Of a DNA stretch of 64,000 nucleotides, positions 7,256 through 57,800 are shown in pieces. Below the pieces are notes generated by a model. It saw only the letters and a program-made list of their open reading frames with translations. It was not told where the DNA came from and searched no databases. The stretch lies in NCBI GenBank assembly GCA_951406725.2, contig OX597818.1, forward strand, positions 7,254,001 to 7,318,000. Direction: 5' to 3'. This stretch comes from Octopus vulgaris. Taxonomy: Eukaryota. Every line of letters starts with the position of its first letter. Within the stretch, counting starts at the first letter, position 1. The position numbers were made by a program, and so were the translations under genes.

Positions 7256-8859
7256 AATGCTGAAAAACTATAAAAAATGAAAACAAATTTCGACAAACAT
7301 AAAACGCCCCAGAAGAATAATTGCAAGCAATAACCTTCAACCATTATTGCTAGTCGGAAGATATAGCAGACAAAATTGGCAGGAAGTTATTTCGTAAAAA
7401 CAATAAATGGTTGTACAGGGATGAAAAGAATAGTAAAACAGAGAAGTAGAGGGGAAAATAGCTATATTAATAATAATAATAAAAAGATGTATGTAAAAGA
7501 AATTGAGTGACAGAAGGAGAGGCAGGAGAGAGAGGGAGAGAGAGGTGGAGAGAGAGAGAGTAAAGGAAAGAACAAATATATGAATGAAGGAAGGACAGTG
7601 AATGGTAAATTAGAAATAAAAGAAATATAACAGAAAGGAGGAAATGTGTAAAAATGAACAAAAAGAATTAAGGGAAAGCGGTTTAATAAAGAATAATCAT
7701 TAGAAAAGCAGATAGAAATATCTGACAGAGAAACTATGAACGTTACACAGAAGGAAAGAATGAAAGTAGAAATGAAATGGCAGAATGAAAGAAACCGAAG
7801 AAGGTAGAGGGGATGAGTAAAAGACAAATAGAATGTTCAGTGTGAAAATGAGAAAGAGAGATAGGGAGATAAGAAGAGAGAGGTGGAGAGAGAGGAGGGA
7901 AGAGAGAGATAGACACAATTAAAGGAGACAGAAACAAAACTGCATACAAGGTGAAAGTAAAAAGAGAAACCCATGAGTGTTGAACCGGGCGAAATAGATA
8001 TTCGCATCAACTATAACAACAAAAACAACAATGCAAAGTTTCTAACATAGCCGTCATTCTCGTCCATCATCATAAACATCATCAACATCGTCTCCGTCTT
8101 TGACATCATCATCAGCAGCAGCAGCAGCAATGCCATTACCATTCTAAAACATCGACGCCATAGTTGTCATTACATCGTTATGCCTCACTATTACTACCGC
8201 TATTAGTTGACTCAACACTAATCCTCTTCCACCACCGGCATCCGTTGGACTATTCTCTTACTCGCCGGCTTGCCGTCTGCAGCAGAAGCATCATCATCAA
8301 ATGCTGCAATATTAATCCCGCTACTCCACTACCAAACACGTCAAACTATTAACCTGCAAATTTTACTGTTATTGAACACATTACTAAAGCTCCAAAATCA
8401 GTGTCTGCTTCTTGCTGTATTGAACAATCTTGACATATGCTGACGGGGGAAACCTCTACGAGTTGTCGTAACCCTTTAAAAATAGCAGCCATGTTTATCT
8501 CGAATCACATCCCAGTACTCTTAGCAAAGGATTCTTTCGATAATGCGATATTGCACATAAGAAAATGGCGGAATGGTCACTGCTGGAATGTCTTTCATTC
8601 TCGTACAGCTTTATTTGGAACAACCTATGGCTAAATCACATACAAACACCAAATATATATATATATATATATTGTCGTCTCTACTGTGTTTAGTTTCACC
8701 CATCGTAAACGATGTGTTTAATGTTTTTTACTGGGGAAAGTCATTTGGAGAGCAGCGTGTTAAAACAGTTTCTGTGTGATGCTTGTAAATGATTTCAAAG
8801 GCCTAGGAAATAGTTGAGAATTTTATATCTGATTCTGTAAAGAGAAACAAACCGCAGTA

Positions 8860-8913
<54 letters not shown>

Positions 8914-9718
8914 CGCGTGTGTGTGTGTGTGTGTGTACGTGTGTGCCCCGGAAGATGCACTGGAACGTCGACTCTGACTCACAGGTTCGCACTTGCGGAC
9001 ATCCATCATAAACACTCCTGGACTTGCTATCGCACCATCCATTTCACCAATACACCAGTAGTTTTGGTACCTATGGTTCCACATCACCGCGGCAACAGCC
9101 ACTAACATCACCATCACCAATAACAGTAACAATAACATCATTACTATTGCCAAAATCCATCATCACCAACCATTTCACTCTCTGTCTATTCTAGAATTTC
9201 TCTGACCACCAACAAAGATTATCATCACCTACAACCCCGCCATTACTTTACCGCCACTAACACCACCACCAATATCATCACTACCATTACCACCACATTA
9301 CAACCAACACCATATCACCAATAACATTGTCAATATTAAGCCTATCACCATTGACACATAGTCCAGTATCAGTGACCACCCCACCACCACCACAAACAAC
9401 AACAACAACAACAACAACAGCACAGTACTCCCACTGTGGCCACTGTCTTCTTCCTGAACCTATCTTGGAATCCTTGCTTATCCGCATTATCTGCTAGAAA
9501 TAGCAGCCAAATCTAACATTAAATTCTATCGCCTAAAGTAAGCATATACATGTTAAAATTTATAGTACCGTTGAAGTTTAGAATCGCAGGCTAAGAATAA
9601 ACTTGGTTAGGTTTGTACTGGGACCAAGAAAACATCACTCGCATACTACAGCAAAGTGACCAGCAAAATCTCATACAATTCGCACTTGAATGTTTAGGAA
9701 AATGAAGAGGAAAATGAA

Positions 9719-9890
9719 GGCGGAGAGCTGGCAGAATCGTTACCATGTCAGGCAAAATTCTTAGTGGTATTTCGTCCGTCTTTATGTTCTGAGCACTGAC
9801 GCCGAAGGAATCGATTTTGCCTTTTATCTAATCGGGGTCGATAAAATAAGCAGGAGTTCAGCACTGAGATCGATGTAATCGACTTACTCT
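9719..9890 (+). mobile_element. SINE family A copy
   Basis: GGCGGAGAGCTGGCAGAATCGTTACC...GGGGTCGATAAAATAAG...GTAATCGACT matches the other copies. Confidence 0.7.
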
Positions 9891-11084
9891 ATTTGGAAAA
9901 AGGATGGTAAACATTTCGTACAGTATGCATTATATTAAAAATGATAAAGAATTTATGATTGTACCCTTTCTAATCATAGGTCATTTCGGTCATGTCTGAT
10001 GTAAACTAGTATATGCCACCTAAGAACCAGCTAAAGAGTAAATATCTTTTATTCTCCTATGCCTTGAATTCTTGAATGCGCTGTAGACGTGCTATTTAAG
10101 CATACATTATTTCTTGAGCATTTGTGAAACATGGTGCAGCCCATTCCTTTCTAGGCAAGATCATATCTGATTAATTTGTTCGTTTGCTCCTTCCTTCCTT
10201 CCTTCTTTCCTTCCAGAGAGATGTGGGAGGAGAGGAGAGAGAAAAGTGAGAAGCCGTATAAATCCAATGCGTGATTTGAACTCTAGACGTATTGAGCGTG
10301 TACAAATAGTGCTTGGCATTCTCTACGATGGTCTAACGAAACTGTCAATCTCTCGTTATCCTAATTCTAAATACCAACAGTTCTCCCGGTGCCTCATCTA
10401 TCACAGCAGTCCGACTGCATCTACTTAAAGGACCGCCTCTGGTATCATTAGCAGGAATGGCAACACTGACTCCGCCAAACCTAGAAAAAAGAATCACCAC
10501 CGCAACTACCACCTCCACCACCACCACCACCACCACCACCACCGCCATTATTACTAAACTCCATCAACGCCTCTGTTATCACCAGCATAAAAATCGCCAC
10601 CACCAACTTCACAACTACGACTATCATCACCATTACTGCTGCCATCACCACCACTAACAACAACAACAACAACAACACCATCACTACTCTCTCCATCACC
10701 AACTGAACTGCGCCACCATGTGTTCCATCGGAACGATAGTCATCACCAGTATAATCCCTGTATATTACTATAACTACCAATAATTACTGGCACCATTATG
10801 ATCACTACAACAAAAATCAGTACTAGTATCGCCTCTGTTATTACCTCCACCCCTTTAACATGAATATCACGAGAAACACCATTATGAATATTACCGTTTC
10901 AACCAGGGCGACTACAGCCAATGTCACCGACAGCATCGAAACCGCCTTAAACAACATATTCACGCAACCATCAACCCCGTCCACTTCAACTCCACCAATA
11001 TAATCCCCACCACCACCATGATGGTATTTCTTGTGATGCCGTTCCACTCTGTCCAAATGTCATTCCTTTGGTAAACGAACTGTT

Positions 11085-11668
11085 TGTAAGAATTAGCACT
11101 TCCTTCTCAAAGCTTGGATTCGAAATCAGACCCAAGAATCATTGGTCGTAAAATACCAATGCACAAAAAGGCGCGAAATCAGAATCTCTTTGTTCTGACA
11201 AAAAATGATGGATCGTCTCCCTTCGACCTCTGACCCGAGCAGGTCAGGCGAAGTTTAACAGGACGACCAGCGACCTACTTTAATGATAACTCTCTTGCGG
11301 TATATCTATTTTTCTGGCTATTTGAGATGTTATAAATAGAACGGAGAAATAGGTATCTAGAGAGAACCCGAATCAACGTTTAAGAGAACGCCACGCATTT
11401 ATGAGAACGACGAAAGAATATTCAGAAAGGTGACTCTGTCATGCATGATTTACACACACGCACACACACACACCATCAAACATATTCTGCTTTAATGTGT
11501 ATCCTGTATTATGCATTCCTTTAATATGTATTATTTGCAACCACTATTTAATATGCATTTTGTACAAGCGATGTGTAACATTGCTTACAAATTGATGTAG
11601 TGATAATAAATCTTTAATTTATTACAAAGCACTTATGTATTTATTAATACATCCACGCATCCACTACA
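11085..11668 (+). repeat. 5' LTR
   Basis: TGTAAG...CCACTACA; no difference from 16555-17138 by eye; TATAAATA at 11331-11338; AATAAA at 11605-11610. Confidence 0.97.
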
Positions 11669-11670
11669 TT

Positions 11671-11681
11671 TGGTGACCCCG
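11671..11681 (+). promoter_or_regulatory. Primer binding site (tRNA-Trp)
   Basis: TGGTGACCCCG 2 nt after the LTR, complementary to the tRNA-Trp 3' end CGGGGUCACCA. Confidence 0.9.
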
Positions 11682-11786
11682 CAAAACGAATCGCGCCTTC
11701 CCCGGAACCAGCTTCATCAACCGCGTCGAAGAATTACAGTTTGCACATCACCAGCAACGAAGCAACTGAAAATTCCGACGAAAACA

Positions 11787-12662
11787 ATGAATCTCCCGGA
11801 ACAAAACCCAGCGGCCAACATCGACATGGCATTCCAAGCGGCGATCTCGTTAAAAATTCCACCATTCTGGACCCACGACCCGACATTGTGGTTTCACCAT
11901 ATAGAGGCACAGTTTGCCTCTCACAGAATATCGAGCGATGCGGCTCGACTTTCTCACGTTATCAGTTCTCTGTCACCAGAAATAACGAACGTGATACACG
12001 ACCTTATCATGGCACCACCCGGTTCTGTTTCATATGAAGTTTTTAAAACCACGTTAATAAACAGAACCTCAGAATCCCAACAAAAAAGACTTCACCAGCT
12101 TCTGATATCGGAAGAATTGGGTGACAAAACGCCGTCCCAGCTTCTTCGGAGAATGAAACAGCTTCTCGGAGATGAGACGCTCCCAGAAAAAATCTTCAAG
12201 CAACTTTTTCTCCAGCGTCTGCCCTCCAATACCCAGGTTGTTCTCGCGTCCACCAGAGAAAACACATCCCTTGAAGAACTGGCGGAGCTAGCTGACAAAA
12301 TAGTCGAAGTACCGCACAGATATCCAACGGTATCGACGGTGACGCCAGCCGCTCCCAGTACCAATCCTTTCCGTGCACAAACCAGTTCTTCAGAGATTTC
12401 GGATTTGCGTGCATTAATGACGCAGCAAGCTGCGCAAATACAAATTCTCACAGCCCAAATACAAGCCCTAAAGTTTAGTCCCCAGCGTCGAAGCACCAGC
12501 CGATCTCGACGAGATGGCAGACGGTCCCGAAGCCCTAGTGCTACCCGGAGCTCACATGACACGTGTTGGTACCACCGAACATTCGGAACACGGGCACAAA
12601 AATGTACGGTACCGTGCTCGTTTTCCTCACCCAGTTCGGGAAACGGCACAGCCAGGAATTGA
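11787..12662 (+). CDS. gag: Gag protein
   Basis: First in-frame ATG at 11787 within ORF 11670-12662; [22 protein letters not shown]-terminal motif, [15 protein letters not shown]-rich linker, CWYH..FG..A.KC..PC motif. Confidence 0.9.
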
Positions 12663-12700
12663 ACGCGACGGAAGTTCCTGGTTCGCACCCACACAGTCGC
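12638..12700 (+). promoter_or_regulatory. -1 ribosomal frameshift signal (G GGA AAC plus stem-loop or pseudoknot)
   Basis: Heptamer 12638-12644 in the gag frame; pol is in the -1 frame; stem 12651-12660/12673-12682; loop GCGAC pairs with GTCGC at 12696-12700. Confidence 0.8.
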
Positions 12701-15211
12701 CTGTTTTTCGTTTGCGATCGTGTAACAGGCACGCGTTTCCTGGTTGACACAGGTGCGGAAGTCAGCATCATCCCAGTCTCCAACACTTCTGGAAAAAGAA
12801 AAGAGACATCAGTCTGTCTTCAGGCAGTCAACCATTCACCCATTCCAACCTACGGTGAACAGTCCCTAACATTAAACATAGGACTACGCCGCACATTTCA
12901 GTGGGTATTCGTCGTCGCTAAACTGCCGACCCCTATCTTAGGAGCCGATTTCCTGCATCATTTCGGTCTCCTGGTAGACATAAAGAACAGACGACTTGTC
13001 GACACCACCACCAAGCTTACTGTGCGCGGTATAGCCGCTCGAATGGACACAGTCAGCCCAACTGTAATGCTTACGACAACGACTCGTCACAGTTCCATCC
13101 TGAATGATTATCCAGATGTCGCCCGGCCAGTTTTTCATAACCAGCCGATAAAGCACGACGTTACCCACCACATCAAAACCAGCGGTCCACCTGTTGCTGC
13201 AAGGCCCAGAAGGTTACCACCTGATCGTCTCCAGGCCGTCAAGCGGGAATTCCAGCACATGCTCGACCTCGGAATCATCCGCGTTTCCAGCAGCAACTGG
13301 TCCTCGCCGATACACTGCGTCCCAAAAAAATCATCGACCGATTGGCGGGTTTGCGGCGATTATCGATCACTGAATAAAAGCACTATCAGTGATGCCTATC
13401 CGGTGCCTTTTCTTCAGGACTTTTCGAGCTCGCTGCATGGAGCTCGCATCTTTTCAAAAATCGACCTGGTGCGAGCATACAACCAAATCCCAGTCGAACC
13501 TGCAGACATCTCAAAGACAGCAGTGACTACACCTTTCGGAATGTTTGAATTCCTGCGTATGCCTTTCGGTTTACGAAACGCGGCACAGACATTCCAAAGG
13601 TTTATCGACATGGTGACTAGAGGTTTGCCTTTCGTCTATGCCTACATAGACGACATACTCGTGGCCAGTAACTCGGACGAAGAGCATAATCAACACCTTC
13701 ACCTGCTATTCGAACGTTTACGTAAATTCGGAATTGTTATCAACCCTACTAAATGTTTGTTCGGAGTTGCTTCCCTTCATTTTCTCGGCCATATAGTCGA
13801 TAAAAATGGAATTCGTCCCCTTCCCGAGAAAGTCAAGGCCATCGTGGATTTTCCACCACCCACATCTCTCCGCAAATTAAGGGAATATCTCGGTCTAGCG
13901 AATTTCTATCGACGGTTCGTGCCCCACCTCGCTGAAATAGCGCAACCGCTCACGGATTTGCTACGTCAGCGAACCTGCAAAAATGCAGATATAGCTCTGA
14001 CCGAAGATCAACTCGTTTCTTTCGCTGCCCTGAAAAAAGCGTTATCTAGCGCTACCATGTTGGTTTATCCAAAACCAGACGCCCCACGATGTTTACTCGT
14101 TGATGCATCCGATTCCGGAATCGGAGGTGTGCTACAGCAGCTTGTTGACGGTATATGGCAACCGTTGTCTTTCTTTTCTAAGCGGTTAAAACCCGCGGAA
14201 ACCAAATACAGCACATTCAGTCGGGAATTATTGGCGGCATACCTGGCCGTTAAGCATTTCCGTCACATGCTAGAAGGTACCAATTTTGCCATATATACCG
14301 ACCACAAGCCATTAGTATACGCATTTAACACCAAGCCGGATCGCCACTCGCCGAGAGAAATCCGCCACCTCGACTTCATATCGCAGTACACGACGGATAT
14401 ACGCCACATCAAAGGGACGACCAACGTGGCAGCCGATGCACTTTCACGTGCGCAGATCAATGCTATCCACACCACGTCTACAATTGATCTGGCACGTATA
14501 GCAGCTGACCAGGAGAATGACGAAGAACTTCTAAAGCTCCGGAATTCGTCATCTCTGAAATTTCAGCATGTTCCACTACCATCATCCACAGCCCATATTT
14601 GGTGTGATATTTCCACTGGTTACCAACGCCCTTATGTACCACAGAAATATCGTCGAGAAGTTTTCTCCGCTCTACATTCTCTGTCACATCCTGGTATTCG
14701 CTCCACTCAAAAGCTAATATCGACCCGTTTTGTGTGGACCAGTATCAACAAGGATATCAGAGAATGGACCAAGTGCTGTGTTGCGTGCCAAAAAGCGAAA
14801 ATCCACCGGCACATAAAATCACCAATCGGTTCATTTTCGCAGCCCGATGCACGATTTCAGCACGTTCACATTGATATCGTTGGACCCCTGCCACCTTCGC
14901 AGAACTATTCATATTTGCTAACTTGCGTAGATAGGTTCTCGCGATGGCCCGAAGCCTGGCCCCTATCTGATATATCAGCAGAAACGGTCGCTAAAACACT
15001 GATATCACAATGGGTTTCGCGTTTTGGCACACCCGCAACAATTACCACCGACAGAGGACGTCAGTTCGATTCCCACCTTTTCACCGAGCTGACTCGTCTC
15101 CTCGGGTGTAAACACACCCGCACTACAGCTTACCTATTTCTCCGTTCTATTTATAACATCTCAAATAGCCAGAAAAATAGATATACCGCAAGAGAGTTAT
15201 CATTAAAGTAG
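12638..15211 (+). CDS. pol: Pol (protease, RT, RNase H, N-terminal integrase), terminated prematurely inside the inserted LTR fragment
   Basis: [10 protein letters not shown] protease; YIDD RT; DASD...ELLA RNase H; HHCC finger; VHIDIVGP and ITTDRGRQF integrase aspartates; diverges after TRTTAY at 15133; stop at 15209-15211. Confidence 0.92.
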
Positions 15212-15314
15212 GTCGCTGGTCGTCCTGTTAAACTTCGCCTGACCTGCTCGGGTCAGAGGTCGAAGGGAGACGATCCATCATTTTTTGTCAGAACAAAGAG
15301 ATTCTGATTTCGCG
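15131..15314 (-). repeat. Inverted copy of the element's own LTR segment (11172-11355 = 16642-16825) inside integrase
   Basis: Reverse complement matches the LTR base for base, from CGCGAAATCAG to GAAATAGGTA. Confidence 0.96.
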
Positions 15315-15965
15315 GTGGAGCGCTTTCACCGCCAACTCAAGGCATCTATAAAAGCAGCTCCAGACAGTTCTCACTGGTTGGAACATCTCCCTCTCATCCT
15401 CCTTGGAATTCGATCCACGATTAAGGAAGAACTGGGATATACTCCGGCCGAACTCGTTTATGGCACAACACTCACCTTACCTGGGCAGATGATCGAACCT
15501 GTTTCACAAAACTTCCCTGACCCACAACAATATGTGCACCGATTACGAACATCCATGTCGCAAGTATCACCCTCAGGCCCCAGACAACAGAACGTCGTTT
15601 CACGTGTCCCAAAAGATATCAACACATGGACTCATGTCTTCGTGAGGAATGATGGGATACCCTCTCAACTTCGACCACCATATTCCGGGCCCTACAAGGT
15701 CATCAAAAGAGAACCCAAGTATTTCGTCCTCGATATTAGAGGTAAACGAAATACGGTCTCGATTGATCGTTTAAAAAAAGCTTTCATCGAGGAGGACTTA
15801 CATTCAGTCCCCTCTTTTCCTCAAACAGACTCGGCAACTCCAGCGAACACCACAGATTCTGCACAACCCCGACACACCAAATCAGGAAGAACAGTTCGAT
15901 GGCCAGCAAGGTTTGTGCAAGTTTTTCGGGTAAGTTCTGAACTCCTAACGTATCCATCTTCCTAA
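15315..15965 (+). pseudogene. Out-of-frame C-terminal integrase remainder (catalytic E, GPY/F motif)
   Basis: VERFHRQLK...LLGIRSTIKEELGYTPAELVYG...PPYSGPYKV...VSIDRLK; open, but in a different frame from pol. Confidence 0.9.
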
Positions 15966-16541
15966 TGAACACATAACTGCATCACCCACCCAGAGAAATC
16001 AAAGAACATTTGTGTACGTAAAGAAAAAAAAAAATGAAAACAAAAACTGTCTGTATGAACTTTTACGGAACATTTCAAAATCGAACTTTGCCGATGAACA
16101 TTTCTTTCATTTTTGCATGTACATATTTTTTGGTTTTCTCTTCAAAATGTTTGCTTTCTCATAAATATATTTTTTTGCTAACTGTATATCCACACACATT
16201 CACAAATCTTGTTCACATGCGTGCTATCACTCGATATTTTTTCGCCACTGAAAGACACCTTGCCTCTATTAGACCTCTAGTAGGTCGAGTAATCAATAGA
16301 CGCACATCTCTTTCAACGCGCCAACATAATTCTGCCTGGGCACATATACATATTGCCCACCATATAGCACACACAAATTGTAAACCTTTCATGCATATTT
16401 TTATCGTTCAATGTGTAAAAAAAAAAATTAAAAAAAATTTTTTTTCTACATGCACACAATCAAAAAAAAAAAAAAAAAAATAATAAAAATAATAATAATA
16501 ATACATTTCCAATATCGTTCGATCTCTGTGGCTTTCTCACT

Positions 16542-16551
16542 AGAAGGGGGG
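16542..16551 (+). promoter_or_regulatory. Polypurine tract
   Basis: AGAAGGGGGG just upstream of the 3' LTR. Confidence 0.88.
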
Positions 16552-16554
16552 TAG

Positions 16555-17138
16555 TGTAAGAATTAGCACTTCCTTCTCAAAGCTTGGATTCGAAATCAGA
16601 CCCAAGAATCATTGGTCGTAAAATACCAATGCACAAAAAGGCGCGAAATCAGAATCTCTTTGTTCTGACAAAAAATGATGGATCGTCTCCCTTCGACCTC
16701 TGACCCGAGCAGGTCAGGCGAAGTTTAACAGGACGACCAGCGACCTACTTTAATGATAACTCTCTTGCGGTATATCTATTTTTCTGGCTATTTGAGATGT
16801 TATAAATAGAACGGAGAAATAGGTATCTAGAGAGAACCCGAATCAACGTTTAAGAGAACGCCACGCATTTATGAGAACGACGAAAGAATATTCAGAAAGG
16901 TGACTCTGTCATGCATGATTTACACACACGCACACACACACACCATCAAACATATTCTGCTTTAATGTGTATCCTGTATTATGCATTCCTTTAATATGTA
17001 TTATTTGCAACCACTATTTAATATGCATTTTGTACAAGCGATGTGTAACATTGCTTACAAATTGATGTAGTGATAATAAATCTTTAATTTATTACAAAGC
17101 ACTTATGTATTTATTAATACATCCACGCATCCACTACA
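16555..17138 (+). repeat. 3' LTR
   Basis: Direct repeat of 11085-11668 at an offset of 5470. Confidence 0.97.
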
Positions 17139-18901
17139 TGTTGTTATTTTCTTTTTTATTGGTGTCTACAAAACAACAATTTTCTTTATATATGACATCA
17201 TATCGGGAAAGATGCGTAGTAAAGGGGCGGCTGATATGGAGAAGATGGAGGTAGTGACTCTCGGAGGATATTTCTGATGGTGGTCGTCGTGGTGATGATC
17301 ATGGTGGAAGGGATGATGTTGTTGCTGTTGTTATTGTTGTTTTTGGTTGTTTTGTTAGCATTGGTTTCGCTGTGTTAATGTTGCTTGAGGTGGAAATGGT
17401 AGTTGTAGTGGTGGTCATGTGGTAGGGTTGTAAGAGTTGGTAAATGAGTGTGAATATTGTTGGTGCTGTTGGTGCTTGTGGGGGTGCAGCTCGTAAGAGG
17501 TGGTGCCGTTGTTTGTGGTGGTGATAGTGGTGTTTGTATTCCTGAGGGACAGCCGAGTTATTAATGCTCAAGCGCGTGCTTTGAGTGACCTTTTATTATA
17601 ACTATTACTGATAACTCCGTTGTTGCTGATACTGTTACAAAAACAAAACAAAAAAGAAAAACGGAACAGCACCTATCATCAGTCGTACACACAGTCGCGC
17701 CATTACCACCGCCACCACCACCGCCACCACAATCACCACCACCACCTCCGCTGCCGCCACCACCATCACCACCACCACCACCACCACCACCACCACCACC
17801 ACCTCCGCCGCCGCCGCCGCCACCACCACCATTACTACAACTACTACAAATTTTCTTCGTTGCGACGACCACCGCTGATGATATTGCCATTTTCCAGCTT
17901 CTTTTAGTGCGTTGATTTAGATAAATATAAATGACACATAAAACAAATCTTAAACAAGCCGTGTGCCATTGTCCTTCCCGTCCCTGGTGGAGAACAGTAA
18001 AACCTTTCTGCCCGAATATATTAGAGCGATTACTTTGTCAATGCCAGCGAAATGACAGAAGGATGAAAGTTGCGGAAACTTTATCCCAAAGACCACACAC
18101 AAATTCCTGTTGTCCACCAAACCCTATGATTGAACAATAAACTAACATTTTCAGACAGTTCGAGAACATTTTTTAAAGGGTGTCAGAAATGTGGTGATGG
18201 CAAAAATCTGACAATAAGCTTCTGTTTCTTTTTGTCTCCTCTTCTTGCGTCTTTCACTTTTACCCTCTTTTTATCTATTTCTAGTTTTTACGCTAATATT
18301 GCTTTACATCAAGGGCCACTTATTTTTTCTGCTTTCTATTTTTTGTTCCTCATTCGCAAATTCTCTCATCTTTTCACTACATTTTATTGCCTTTTATTTA
18401 GGAACACTTGATCTGCTGTATTAATTCCCAAGAAGGTGTTTCATATATCATTGCTCTGTAGATTTTTTTTACTTTGTTTATTATATGTATTTACAATTCC
18501 ATGATATATTAGCAGGAGCACTAACAACAATACAAGAGAGAAAATATAACGATAGCTAAACAATAAAAGTAGAATAGAACAACACTAACTAAAAACGAGT
18601 ATCAAGAACTGAATTATGCTTAACACTGGTACACATAATGCAAATTGCATTGGGAAGAATTTAGAAAAGCGAAGTTTTGGGCTGCAAAATTGATTTATCA
18701 ATCGGTTTTCAGTATATCTTATATTTTCATTATATATGTGTATGTGTGTATATGTATGTATATATATGTGTATGTGCATTTGTGTGTGTTTGTGTTATAT
18801 TTATATATGTATATATATATATATATATTAAGTATCTAATATATATAATATATATGTGTGTTATATTTATAAATCTTTATACATAAATAAATATATATAT
18901 T

Positions 18902-18936
<35 letters not shown>

Positions 18937-19613
18937 GGGTTGACATGTCTACCAATGGTTTCATGTGAAAGGTCATCACAACTGTTCAAGCAGACCACAT
19001 ACATGTACTGGCACTTGTCTCCATGTGGGATGGAGGTAGACGAGCTTACATGAAGCTGAATTGGATTTCGAAATAAATAAACAACTCAAGGGAGATAAGC
19101 TATGAGAATGTACTGATTGTTATCTTTTTTGCATTCGCCGCGGTGTTTTGCAAGAAATTGGTTTTACCATAGATTAATTAATTCCTTAAGTATCTCATAC
19201 GAGTACGTTCGTTTATATTTTACTTGCTTTAGTCATTAGACTGCAGCGATGCTGGGTCATCGCCTTGAAGAATTTCTAATTGAAGGAATCGACCAATAAA
19301 TGTTTTTAAAGTCTGGTACTTATTCCATCGGTCTCTTGTGCCGAAACGCTGTGTTTCGTGGACGCTATCTCTTTCCGTTATAGACTTCATGATGACATTA
19401 AATACCTCATCTGCTTTCCTTTTCATTCAGTAAAAATTATCATCAAAAAGCAATGAGTTCCTTGAGTTTATTATAATGGCCATGTCGATGTTAGTGACAG
19501 TTGCATATATTTTACTAAACTAGAGTGCCCTCCTGTAGTCTGTGCTTTGATTTTGAAATCCCGTTCAGTCTCGGGCGATATCGTATTTTCCCATCCAAGA
19601 TGGAGATAAGTAC

Positions 19614-20645
19614 TGTAGCGGTATCTGATATCCTCACTGTTTGGGAGACACAACAGGAATGATCTCGTTTGAGATTACAGCCATCTTTGGCCGGGTTGTT
19701 CCTGTTGTGTCCACAGATCTGATTGGTTGGCATGTGGCGCGGTTTGTCGCTACTTATTTCACGCCACTGCAAAGCCAACCAATCACGGCCTTTGGTTAAG
19801 GTCTCGTGACACTGTTTTTCCTAGGCTCTGTTTGATCCATTTCTCCTTTATATAAAGGGTTTGCTTTCAGTATACAGGGTCTTTGACTCTAGACCTTTTA
19901 AGGTCCAGTCTAGTCACTGACGAGCTTCGTACTCAGCCATGTTCCAGTTTCCAGCGACAGACGACCAGTCAGCCAGCCACTACGACGCTATTATACACCA
20001 GCGACAGACAGAACGTCTTCTATCTCCGCCGCCGTCATAACCATCACCGTACCAACTTTACCTCGTCTCTACCATCATCAACTTCAGATATGTACACACC
20101 AACTACACAGACTCACGCTGTTAGAGTGAACCTTTCACCAAGTAAAACAATCCATCTGAAGAATTCTATATTAAGAGACCCAGCTCAGCTTTGAGGCTAC
20201 AACCGCGGCACAGCATTTCGCCCAACATGCCTCCGCCTCGAGACACAACTTCTTGTATAGAACTCTTGCATATCGGGTACTTCATGCATGAACTGGTAAT
20301 CTAAATTCCATCTTAACACTAGGCTGAGACTTTTGTCTTATACTCTACTTCTGTGTTATACACGTTCACCTTTGCCTCTGTCACACACAGACACAAACAC
20401 TTGTTGCATGCACACATACACAACACTTGCTAGCACTCACAACACTCTAACTTTAACACCTTGTTAATAAAATCTTCTCTTCTCTCAAACAGTGAAACGG
20501 CTTGTTGTCATTAATTTATATTCTGTTGGCACTGTATTATATAAGTAATATTATAGCTTATCCTATTTTGTTAGGGATGCGACCGTGCGGCGTACAAAGG
20601 GAGACCTATGTCCCCAACCTCCTCACATACGGTCGTATTCCTACA
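19614..20645 (+). mobile_element. Solo LTR (about 1.03 kb) of an unrelated family
   Basis: TGTAG...CTACA termini; GTAC TSD (19610-19613, 20646-20649); CCAAT boxes; TATATAAAG near 19850; AATAAA near 20466. Confidence 0.75.
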
Positions 20646-23900: not shown

Positions 23901-24303
23901 AAAACAAAATACGTTGTTAACGTTCCGTGCTTCAGGAAATTAATTATTTATGGAGATATTAATTTAATATACTACATAGGATTCATTACGGTCTTAGTGG
24001 TAATATCGGTAGAACGCCGAAAAATTCCTTGCTATATTTCATCTCGTAATGTTCTAGATTCAATTACTCATCTTCCAGAACACAACTATGCTCTTTAAAG
24101 TGTTTTATCACCGTAGAAACATCATGTTTTACTAAAAAATAACTTTCGTTGCTACATCAGTATTACTATTGGAATATTGCTAGTGCGAAACAACATGATC
24201 ATGCCATCTCATACCACTGCATCAAACAACATGATCATGCCATCTCATATCACTGCATTAAACTTTGAATCTTATATGAGGTACTTTTGTTAATTTCATT
24301 GTA

Positions 24304-24505
24304 GGCGGTGAGGTGGTAGAATCATTACCGCACCGAAAAAGATGCTTAGTGGCGGTATTTCTTCCGATTATACTTTGTGAGCTCAAACGCCGCCGAGGTC
24401 GACTTTCGTCCTTCAATAAAACAAATGAAAGTTGAACACTAGGGTCAATGTAACCAATTTACTCTTTCATGAAATTGCTAGTCTTGTGCCAATATTTGAA
24501 ACCAA
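24304..24505 (+). mobile_element. SINE family A copy
   Basis: GGCGGTGAGGTGGTAGAATCATTACC...GCCGAGGTCGACTTT. Confidence 0.7.
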
Positions 24506-26170: not shown

Positions 26171-26346
26171 AAAGGGATCAAGTCGATTATATCGACCCAG
26201 TGCGTAACTGGTACTTAATTTTTCGACCCCGAAAGGATGAAAGGCAAAGTCGACCGCTTTTGAATTTGAACTTAGAACGTAACGGCAGACGAAAAACCAC
26301 TAAGCATTTTCGCCCGGTGTGCTAACGTTTCTGCCAGCGTGCTGCC
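26171..26346 (-). mobile_element. SINE family A copy
   Basis: Reverse complement of the family head and body. Confidence 0.8.
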
Positions 26347-27049: not shown

Positions 27050-28276
27050 CAGGGATTGGACAAAATAATGGAAAAATTTAATTAAACATGGGGTAGGACC
27101 ACCTTTGGCAGTAAATACAACTTGAATTCTATGAGGTAAGGACTCGTACGAAGTTTGAATTGTTTCCAAAGGAATTTTTTGTCCATTCTTCAGCTAAAAC
27201 AGTCTCCAGCTTTTGTGGGATGATGGTGGAGGCTATCGACGCCTTACTTGTTTTTCTAAAATGCACCATAAATGTTCAAGAATATCAAGATCTGGGGTCT
27301 GTTGTGGCCAGATAGGATGTTCAACTTCACTAGAATTTTCCTTGTGCCATTCAGTAACAAATTTAGCTGTGTGAATTGGTGCATTATCATCCTGAAAGAT
27401 TGCGTTTCCTTCCGGAAACAGTTCCGAAACCATAGGATGAATTTGATACGAATAAATGCTTAAATAGTCTTGACTGTTAATTCTGCCATGAAAGGAGACT
27501 GTTGGGCCGGCGGATTTCCAAGGTATAGCCTCCCAGAACATCACAGATCCTCGTTCATGTTTCACAGTTGGAAGAATGCAGTCTGGGTCAAATTCATGTT
27601 TTGGCTGTCCACACGTATACTCGGCTTGTTGTCTGAAATAAGGTAAAGGATGACTCGTCCGAGAAAATAACATTCTTCCACTGCTCTAGAGACCAATTCT
27701 GTAGATTTCTACTCCACTCTAAACGCTTTGCAATATTTGTTTTTGAAAGTAGTCGTTTTTTAATTGCGGCCCTCCTGGGAAATCCGGCTTTGTGCAGTCC
27801 CCTGCGAACAGTTTTTTGTGGAAACTGGATTCTCGAGGTGGTCATTAAGCCATGCAGTAATTTTGGGAGATGTACCCTTTCTAACAATTCACGTAAGCAT
27901 CCTTCGGTCCCTATCTGAAAGTTTTAGTTTTCTTCAGGACTTTTGTGTCGACGAGGAGGTTTTCCCACTTTCTCAAAGGCTGTCATTACTTTCGAGACAG
28001 TACTTCTTGATACACGAAGCATTTCGGCTGTTTACGTTATGCTAGCGCCTGCCATATTAGCACAAACAATTTGAACTCTTTGAAAGTCCGATAGTCTGTC
28101 ATTGTATTGAATTTTAATAACCTTTTATGATGATATCTGAAAAGAAACAGCAATTTTAGCAAAACAACAACACTTATAATAAATCAAAAAACATAAAAAT
28201 AAACAAGTTTTTGACAGTTTTATAGATATTTCAAAATTATGATGCTAGGTGTCTCCATTATTTTGTCCAAATCCTG
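27050..28276 (-). mobile_element. Tc1-like (DD34E) DNA transposon with frameshifted transposase
   Basis: TIRs CAGGGATTGGACAAAATAATGGA / TCCATTATTTTGTCCAAATCCTG followed by TA; motifs WKNVIFSDES, FQDDNAPIH, WPQQTPDLDILEHLW in ORFs 27594-27887 and 27233-27673. Confidence 0.92.
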
Positions 28277-28799: not shown

Positions 28800-29290
28800 C
28801 AAAAGTATTTTCGACACGTAGTAACCCTCTTTCTATTTATTCATGGAAAGAAACAAAGAAATACATATCTGATGATGAAGCAATATATATATAATTATTT
28901 CTCATGAATGTTGTTGGGTCTTTCGAAATGTTGGCTTTGAGAGATTTAAGAAATGCATTATCCTTTTTTCTTTATGACTACACTTTCTTGCTTTCTCGCT
29001 TTCTCGTGATACCTCCCATACAAACATTCGATTCTTAGCATTGTAGACAGTGCTTACAGAGGTCCTGACAGTCCCAGCAACACGTCTAGTTGCAACCCCG
29101 GCACCAAGCAAATCTGCAATGCGTTGTCTGTTGGCTTCTTAAGTGGACATGCTAAATCGTATGACTGGAACTTCTGCTTAACTGAGCTTCCACCTTGATA
29201 TAGAAAACAATATTCTAGTATTTACACTCAGGAATATATGAAAAATAAGGCTTCCAACATATTCCAAGTTTAGCTTCCCCACCCTCTATA
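28800..29290 (-). mobile_element. Tc1/mariner-superfamily remnant (N-terminal HTH only)
   Basis: QRIADLLGAGVATRRVAGTVRTSVSTVYNAKNR, an HTH-like translation. Confidence 0.45.
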
Positions 29291-47880: not shown

Positions 47881-48011
47881 TAAACTAATAAGTAGTGGTG
47901 GAAGGTGTGTGAAGTTGAAGCTCAAGCATAGATTACTATTATCAACAGTTGCCTATTTCTATGCATTCAACAAATCCCTGCGTTTTGTAATCCAAACCTA
48001 ATATATGTATG

Positions 48012-48045
<34 letters not shown>

Positions 48046-48081
48046 TGTATGTATGTATGTATGTATATATATATATAAATG

Positions 48082-48138
<57 letters not shown>

Positions 48139-48142
48139 GTAT

Positions 48143-48212
<70 letters not shown>

Positions 48213-48454
48213 GAATATATATATACATACATACACATATAGATACACACATACATACATACATACATACATACATACATACATACATACATACATACAT
48301 ACATACGTACATACATATATATATAAACTAATAAGTAGTGGTGGAAGGTGTGTGAAGTTGAAGCTCAAGCATAGATTACTATTATCAACAGTTGCCTATT
48401 TCTATGCATTCAACAAATCCCTGCGTTTTGTAATCCAAACCTAATATATGTATG

Positions 48455-48488
<34 letters not shown>

Positions 48489-48526
48489 TGTATGTATGTA
48501 TGTATGTATATATATATAAATGTATG

Positions 48527-48581
<55 letters not shown>

Positions 48582-48585
48582 GTAT

Positions 48586-48639
<54 letters not shown>

Positions 48640-48702
48640 GAATATATATATACATACATACACATATAGATACACACATACATACATACATACATACATA
48701 CA

Positions 48703-48735
<33 letters not shown>
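47881..48735. repeat. Tandem duplication, unit about 443 bp (about 120 bp unique plus compound microsatellite)
   Basis: TAAACTAATAAGTAGTGG...CCAAACCTAATATATG identical at 47881 and 48324. Confidence 0.93.
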
Positions 48736-48777
<42 letters not shown>

Positions 48778-51754: not shown

Positions 51755-52089
51755 AAATACCAGCACGCAACTGGTACTTTATTTATCCACCTCGAAGGAT
51801 GAAAGCAAAGTCGACTTTGGTGGAATTTGAAATCAGAAGATAAAGACAGACGAAATATCTATTTCTTTATTACCCACAAGGGGCTAAACACAGAAGGGAC
51901 AAACAAGGACAGACAAACGGATTGAGTCGATTACATCGACCCCAGTGCGTAAATGGTGCTTATTTAATCGACCCCGAAAGGATGAAAGGCAAAGTCGACC
52001 TCGGCGAATTTGAACTCAGAACGTAGCGGCAGACGAAATACCGCTAAGCATTTCTCCCGGCGTGCTAACGTTTCTGCCAGCTCACCGCC
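51755..52089 (-). mobile_element. SINE family A: full copy (51860-52089) plus adjacent partial copy
   Basis: Well-preserved reverse complement of GGCGGTGAGCTGGCAGAAACGTTAGCACGCCGGG. Confidence 0.85.
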
Positions 52090-56537: not shown

Positions 56538-57800
56538 TTGGGTTGGTAACTAAGTTCGCGCCGTTTTTCTAAATTTTAGAATTTATTGCGTTTTTAAATT
56601 TTGGAATCTATTTTTTACGAGAATTCTATTTTTGAATCATTTTGGAATCTATTTTTTTTTTCTAGTTAATTTTAGATAATTTTTGTTTATTTTCAGATCA
56701 TTAAAATGGAATGTCATGTTAAGAAAAACGAGCATTTTCGGCACCTCCTACTTTTTGCTTTTAATCAAGGTTCTAAGGCCGCAAAAACTGTACGTGACAT
56801 TTGTGGTGTGTATGGAGAGGGTGCCATAGCTGAAAGAACCGCTCCTCATTGGTATGCCAAGTTCAAAAATAGACATTTTGACCTAATAGATGCACCTGAT
56901 TCTGGCTGTCCAGTTGAGTTCGATGAAAAGCGATTAAACCAACTTTTGCACGAAAACCCTCGTCAAACGACAAGATAACTGGCAGAGAAAATGGAATGTT
57001 GCCACACTGCTATAGAGAAGCATCTTCACTCGATAGGGAAGGTTCAGAAGTATGGAGCATGAGTTTCGCATCATTTATGTGACAACAACAAAAATCAACG
57101 AACCACAATCTCCGCTGGTTTGCTTGCTCGTCACCGCTCAACTCATGTTACACAAGCAACGATTTATTTACCAAATCGTTACTGACGACGAAAAATGGTG
57201 CCTGTACATCAATATGAAGCAGTGTAAGGAACGGCTTGGCTCCGGTAAACAAGCGACACTGCGCGTGAAACAAGATCTTCATCTGCGTAAAACGATGCTG
57301 TGCGTATGGCGGGACTGGGAAGGGATTATCCATTACGAATTGCTTGAACGGAACCAAACGAACGGTCAACGCAGAGCTCTATGTTGAACTTAATATGGCT
57401 ATTCAACAGAAAAGACCTAATCGGCAGCATGGATTTCTTATGATGCACAACACCCGCCCTCATATCTGCAATATGACCAAGGAATGACTGGGAAGTGCTG
57501 CCACACCCGACGTACTCCCCAGATTTGGCACCAACGGATTTTCACTTCTTTCGATCTCTTTCAAATGCTATGCGCGGAGTTTCGTTCAATATTGATGCAG
57601 AACTGAGAGCTTGGTTTGATCAATTTTTCGAGTCGAAATCGAGTGATTTGTAAGAAAGAGCTACTGAAAATCTTGTTGAACGTTGGGAAGAAGTTGTAAA
57701 CAACAAGGGTGAATACATTATTGATTAATTAGTTGTTATTTTTTATTAAACCTTTTAAAAGATTAAAAAAAAAACGGCGGGAACTTCGTTGCCAACCCAA
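56538..57800 (+). mobile_element. Mariner (DD34D) transposon with pseudogenised transposase (56706-57728)
   Basis: TIRs TTGGGTTGGTAACTAAGTTCGCGCCGTTTTT / AAAAACGGCGGGAACTTCGTTGCCAACCCAA followed by TA; motifs IVTDDEKW and HPTYSPDLAPTDFHFF. Confidence 0.93.

Follow-up and report, generated by a model that had tools for sequence, protein, structure and literature searches.

Ty3/gypsy retrotransposons of the CsRn1 clade (CsRn1, PwRn1 and AgCR) are described, in the sections of PMC2582038 on which we draw, as sharing a CHCC Gag knuckle, overlapping gag and pol genes with a -1 frameshift, the domain order PR-RT-RH-IN, a GPY motif, the absence of env and a 4-bp target duplication. The octopus element that is the subject of this account is like them in all these respects; it is unlike them in that this copy has a fragment of LTR, in inverted orientation, in the core of its integrase gene, of which those sections make no mention. 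Rearranged elements of other kinds provide partial parallels. Defective HIV-1 proviruses with inversions are likewise rearranged internally while their ends are intact and their integration was normal; among HIV proviruses there are two classes of inversion, each at 1.3% (n = 1 each), for which the part of the report cited does not state a mechanism (PMC9278108). The antisense nested insertion of EVD in Arabidopsis also places antisense LTR sequence inside an element, but in that case integrase put in a whole element and left a target duplication, whereas in octopus a 184-bp internal piece replaces 21 nt; in the cited text on EVD both an LTR hairpin and convergent transcription are put forward by the authors as untested proposals (PMC11624286). 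Mu killer (PMC3440606) and the inverted duplications of Ac (10.1101/2020.01.07.897926) in maize are rearranged copies with an inverted self-duplication, and a hairpin transcript is predicted here as well; in contrast to the octopus copy, they are DNA transposons with kilobase stems that rely on plant siRNA machinery, and the cited passages report silencing as demonstrated. DIRS-1 (PMC4482531) and micropia (PMC6797199, citing Lankenau 1994), as presented in the portions cited, make antisense RNA to RT from an internal promoter, and are the parallel for a promoter reading of the fragment that is taken up below; theirs are family-wide inherited features with measured transcripts, whereas here there is one broken copy, known from its sequence. 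On present evidence the octopus copy is to be counted neither with the plant examples nor with DIRS-1 and micropia. A narrowly framed literature search, by title and abstract, found no report of an inverted LTR fragment within integrase, which is weak evidence of novelty.

Self-BLAST of positions 8001-20000 against the window (the whole 64,000-nucleotide stretch of Octopus vulgaris DNA that was analysed), together with string comparison, found two LTRs and one exact inverted match. The LTRs delimit a retrotransposon at 11085-17138, whose features lie on the forward strand unless stated otherwise. Its 5' LTR (11085-11668) and 3' LTR (16555-17138) are the same 584-bp sequence with TG...CA ends, and string comparison places the 4-bp target-site duplication, TGTT, at 11081-11084 and 17139-17142. 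AATAAA at LTR position 521 (11605-11610) is a candidate sense poly(A) signal, of which the copy at 17075-17080 would be the one used. The primer-binding site, TGGTGACCCCG (11671-11681), is presumably of the tRNA-Trp type, a trait that we take to be common to the CsRn1 clade; a polypurine tract occupies 16542-16554. The open gag frame (11787-12662, 291 aa) encodes a DUF7041 domain and a CX2HX9CX3C (CHCC) knuckle. It overlaps a pol frame that is free of stops over 12560-15133, and the overlap contains a slippery heptamer, G GGA AAC (12638-12644), at which a -1 frameshift probably occurs. Stem-loops predicted right after the heptamer (12645-12720, -21.2 kcal/mol) are of the kind expected of a frameshift stimulator. 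The motifs of pol follow in the order PR-RT-RH-IN: protease DTG at 12746, RT YIDD at 13643, RNase H DAS at 14102 and, in integrase, HHCC at 14675 and the first two DDE aspartates at 14873 and 15050. A GPY/F motif is present and env is absent, and the frame of 153 codons that lies after pol and before the 3' LTR has no Pfam match. On motifs and structure the element fits a CsRn1-like Ty3/gypsy assignment, as set out in the cited sections of PMC2582038.

The inverted match is a 184-bp insert on the minus strand at 15131-15314, delimited by self-BLAST, string comparison and comparison with relatives. It is the reverse complement of LTR positions 88-271, that is, of 11172-11355 in the 5' LTR and equally of 16642-16825 in the 3' LTR (184/184, E 4e-92); the two are indistinguishable as donors and lie 3775 and 1327 nt, respectively, from the insert. 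As an inverted copy it is far beyond chance. Its limits are exact because the donor's next base differs on either side. The first-pass annotation had recognized an inverted LTR copy, which is real, and had started it at 15120, which takes in 11 nt of integrase sequence; the true start is 15131. String comparison bears out its other measurements. TATAAATA, a candidate TATA box that stands at 11331-11338 and 16801-16808 in the LTRs (LTR position 247), recurs on the minus strand at 15155-15148 within the copied segment, with 159 nt of copied LTR upstream (about 160 bp had been claimed) and 17 nt downstream, where the copy stops. The motif points toward RH, RT, PR and gag, and the fragment does, as had been said, face them in antisense orientation.

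Two firm consequences of the insert had been missed: integrase is lost, and any full-length sense RNA would carry a hairpin. Each of the two pieces of integrase was compared on its own with 360 relatives, of which 240 match the N-terminal piece and 204 match both. The gap between the pieces is 7 residues in 201 of these 204 relatives, all of them distant (the others have 5, 8 and 58), and in 115 of 116 in another comparison. The insert occupies the place of these 7 codons of the relatives, after the second D of the DDE triad and before its E; 21 nt of target are lost, and those bases are absent from the window. With 7 codons put back, the second D (15050) and the E (15318) are separated by 35 residues, which is the canonical D(35)E spacing. 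As it stands, the pol frame meets a premature stop inside the insert, after the frameshift, at 15209-15211, and the C-terminal part of integrase (15315-15965, with the catalytic E at 15318 and GPY at 15687) is stranded, open, in another frame. An autonomous element needs an intact integrase DDE core; here the E is split off and out of frame, and the copy is shown to be unable to make integrase.

The insert is the copy's only visible lesion: apart from the stop that the insert brings, gag and the two parts of pol are open throughout. The LTRs are identical to each other at 584 of 584 positions (95% upper bound of divergence 0.5%), and the insert to the LTR at 184 of 184 (1.6%), which points to a very young element; since the LTRs are identical, the target duplication intact and gag and pol otherwise stop-free, the insert is about as young as the element itself. 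The family is probably multi-copy and recent. Compared with P0121, a predicted protein of Octopus vulgaris that belongs to a 22-member cluster (possibly including redundant database entries), Gag differs at 3 of 291 residues (99% identity), and the next named Gag matches are from Octopus too. No same-family integrase appears among the best 120 protein matches, the closest being 74-77% identical, a null that is uninformative about sibling DNA because gene sets often drop pol.

The element landed in a long degenerate region rich in ACC and ACT trinucleotides (10400-11084 and 17139-17900), the strand bias of which changes just to the right of the insertion. A host gene around the element was looked for, and no host exon turned up: a Pfam scan of 118 open frames (111 of the 133 listed, 22 simple-repeat frames having been dropped, plus 7 more; exons below 70 codons would be missed, so that the element may yet be intronic) gave only Tc1/mariner remnants and weak sub-cutoff matches. 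Rfam gave 0 matches in the window. The remnants comprise Tc1-type transposase (DDE_3, HTH_Tnp_Tc3_2, HTH_23) at 27236-27923 and 28905-29138 on the minus strand, and a Mariner (Mos1-type) transposase in two open pieces at 56676-57384 on the plus strand. A dispersed repeat of ~180 bp (9719-9895, 2213-2335, 24300-24392, 26180-26338 and 51914-52089; 70-77% identity) resembles an octopus SINE. At 47900-48765 a unique stretch and a TA/TATG microsatellite are tandemly duplicated with a 443-bp period (98% identity over 300 nt; 93% ungapped over 443 nt); the duplication, starting at the edge of the microsatellite, may be genuine or may reflect an assembly error.

For the origin of the insert we favour, at a probability of about 0.6, a one-off replication accident in reverse transcription rather than an evolved module. 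An alternative that can be dismissed is a nested or solo-LTR insertion: the insert lacks TG...CA LTR ends, is not flanked by a target duplication and has replaced target bases, and so was not made by integrase. The same lack of an LTR end and of a target duplication makes a double template switch during reverse transcription the most likely origin. The polymerase copying this element would have left its integrase template, copied 184 nt of LTR off a strand of opposite sense and returned to the integrase template 21 nt further on; the integrase of the intact parent, already in the particle, would then have inserted the product normally. The TATA motif would have been carried along because of its mid-LTR position. 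At the left junction there is microhomology of 2-3 nt, the insert's first 3 nt being also the in-frame codon of a residue that is held by 228 of 231 relatives; that triplet ends only 11 of the 582 LTR positions. At the right junction, 3 insert bases lengthen a small snap-back stem (-6.7 versus -3.1 kcal/mol), a weak, post hoc observation. Short microhomology accounts for the insert's end point without any function. Work from the Temin laboratory reportedly distinguished a deletion-with-insertion class of retroviral rearrangement. By analogy, the defective retroviral proviruses with inversions are probably the best match as to origin; they differ in that the octopus copy is a germline retrotransposon, with the LTR's own candidate-TATA region as the inverted piece.

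A deletion combined with a templated inverted insertion and short microhomology is also a signature of replication-fork template switching and of break repair, so that an LTR 1.3 or 3.8 kb away, a close donor, might have served as template after integration. Such an event would, however, have had almost no time in which to occur, as there are no LTR differences and no other lesion, and errors of reverse transcription are, per cycle, probably far commoner than such repair at one 6-kb locus. We consider it rather unlikely, while noting that one copy cannot separate the two origins. It might also be argued that the allele does not exist and is an assembly or library chimera, since 100% identity of the insert and both LTRs could come from collapse or polishing and the window contains a second suspicious structure, the tandem duplication near 47900-48765. 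Against that stand two clean junctions, with the template resumed 21 nt on and microhomology, and a normal target duplication; the structure is not a fold-back palindrome, and the window contains no N. A chimera is decidedly unlikely.

The first-pass annotation had seen the fragment as a promoter module aimed antisense at pol and gag. Developed further, that proposal makes the insert a working core promoter, from which an antisense RNA of ~3.5 kb, beginning at ~15124, would cross RH, RT, PR and gag and stop in the 5' LTR; the insert could have had the same origin. In its favour, TATAAATA is the sole TATAWAWR of the LTR, both strands having been checked, and the best-spaced candidate antisense starts, TATA+31 and TATA+29 on the minus strand (15124-15126), are predicted in integrase rather than LTR sequence. 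The pyrimidine-purine site at 15124 (TATA+31) matches the initiator consensus, BBCABW, at 5 of 6 positions and scores the same as the native site at TATA+28, but a start this good is found in 23% of 6-nt minus-strand windows of pol, which is the chance level. Some 3.5 kb on, two minus-strand AATAAA motifs (11618-11645; first bases 11645 and 11623) could end the hypothetical RNA, but 9.5% of LTR shuffles also contain two TTTATT, and the poly(A) match is not above chance. Similarly, the 159 nt upstream of the motif are CpG-rich (observed/expected 1.24 versus 0.6 in LTR 351-584), but pol itself stands at 1.17. No ATG-started ORF of more than 80 codons lies in 15124-11600, a point in the proposal's favour. 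An antisense protein was considered and, on the same grounds, rejected; the 238-codon open minus-strand frame antisense to gag and protease (12092-12808), which has neither a long ATG ORF nor a Pfam match, is probably a shadow frame.

The presence of the TATA motif within the inverted copy is not beyond chance. Windows of 184 bp can be placed on the LTR in 401 ways; 177 contain TATAAATA, in 77 it is preceded by 100 nt or more, and 29 stop somewhere from the end of the TATA to TATA+35. At least one TATAWAWR arises in 19.7% of 2000 dinucleotide shuffles of the whole LTR; the corresponding figures for LTR 1-350 and for the 184-mer are 5.7% and 3.8%. The same bases presumably also fit MEF2 (consensus from LTR 246) and forkhead consensus sites. 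From the position of the TATA motif, the copy's end may lie near the U3/R boundary, but this implies an R of ~270 nt, compared with 11-150 nt in retroviral examples, and TATA boxes are poorly conserved in the LTRs of animal Metaviridae, whose U3/R/U5 borders require RNA data, according to the part of PMC3601003 cited for these points.

Also missing from the copy are LTR 1-87, where both CCAAT-type motifs lie, the presumed native start and everything in LTR 272-584. The assertion that the fragment would be under the same regulation as the sense LTR is for that reason unsupported, and the missing sequence counts against the promoter as such; read-through from the 5' LTR would also tend to occlude it. 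Heat-shock elements, after the pattern of flatworm CsRn1 LTRs (cited from part of PMC12801592), were sought in the LTR and no canonical match was found, which is a further point against the promoter. Four AGAAC words, ~20-25 nt apart, lie around and after the TATA motif (11338-11410, LTR 254-325). An enhancer repeat past the insert's end was considered in these words (GAGAAC three times, at LTR 278, 300 and 319; AGAAC four times): for the chosen word 0 of 2000 shuffles do as well, and with any word allowed 277 and 447 of 2000 equal it, so it was rejected as not significant after correction.

At the level of motifs, then, promoter-like sequence faces the coding region, as it would in an internal antisense promoter; the orientation, the geometry, the candidate start at 15124 and the AATAAA spacing stand, while the description as a promoter module is unsupported. 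Trans silencing by opposed promoters in terminal repeats does occur with DIRS-1 of Dictyostelium, according to the portion of that study cited (PMC4482531). The antisense promoter reading is plausible but unproven. A working core promoter with its ~3.5-kb transcript seems to us doubtful, and we would put measurable antisense transcription from the insert at well short of an even chance. To some extent antisense transcripts may start near 15124 as a by-product, but nothing seen requires them.

The second consequence of the insert concerns the sense RNA. When 15101-17110 was folded, all 184 insert bases paired with the 3' LTR arm (16642-16825) in the minimum-energy structure, across a loop of 1327 nt; the duplex is predicted at -354.8 kcal/mol and the region at -705, versus about -483 in 3 shuffled-insert controls. 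Given an active 5' LTR, full-length RNA would fold so that the insert and the LTR copy form a 184-bp stem, and this, because each LTR position is present once in any LTR-to-LTR transcript, would be independent of the U3/R/U5 limits. On this modelling, transcription of the copy would make a perfect 184-bp hairpin in its full-length sense RNA close to certain. The hairpin requires both an active 5' LTR and read-through of an ATTAAA (15202-15207) that the insert puts on the sense strand and at which premature polyadenylation might truncate the RNA ahead of the second arm. In silico, the copy thus has the inverted self-duplication and hairpin RNA of a killer locus.

The likely fate of such a stem differs from that in plants. 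A-to-I editing in cephalopods is widespread and aimed at repeats, in the part of PMC9068888 cited. Molluscs have many piRNAs and apparently no dedicated siRNA pathway; the sections of PMC12479628 on which we rely report no siRNA-type Dicer in molluscs including O. bimaculoides, at least fivefold fewer Dicer-type read pairs than in siRNA-bearing species, and the authors' suggestion that editing serves instead. Repeat-directed editing and the apparent lack of an siRNA pathway together make the hairpin, whose arms contain 53 and 54 adenosines, likelier to be edited than diced. In octopus the stem would most likely be A-to-I edited, and it would probably hinder re-copying of the element.

Silencing of the family by siRNAs cut from this hairpin and aimed at the LTR promoter, in the manner of Mu killer, would have a perfect 184-bp stem to start from and precedents in Mu killer (PMC3440606), the Ac inverted duplications (10.1101/2020.01.07.897926) and EVD (PMC11624286), as far as the cited portions of these go. 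All of the precedents are plants, however, and with no siRNA-type Dicer in molluscs, according to the cited sections of PMC12479628, this route is highly improbable. Since molluscs have piRNAs without an apparent siRNA pathway, antisense RNA is favoured over hairpin siRNA for silencing in trans; if the copy silences its family at all, the antisense route of the first-pass annotation is more plausible. That this copy does silence the family in trans we think improbable.

It is an open question how silencing of a new retrotransposon first gets started in its host, and rearranged copies that give rise to antisense or hairpin RNA have been proven to trigger it in maize and are suspected of doing so in Arabidopsis. 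It is conceivable, as a long shot, that a single error of reverse transcription made a self-silencing copy here, one that would combine an antisense promoter under the family's activators, a piRNA precursor and a promoter-targeted 184-bp hairpin. A promoter in the insert predicts capped antisense ends at 15124-15126 and small RNAs over the coding region; the hairpin predicts editing confined to LTR 88-271 and small RNAs on the stem. Should antisense ends, editing and small RNAs all be absent, this would be an ordinary dead copy with an instructive error of reverse transcription. A self-silencing copy, if true, would amount to transposon immunity that dispenses with both piRNA cluster and host gene, seen in an animal as it first arises, and would have come about in an octopus retrotransposon that is expanding now. 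For the onset of silencing, the locus is a clean natural test in octopus, and a very young one.
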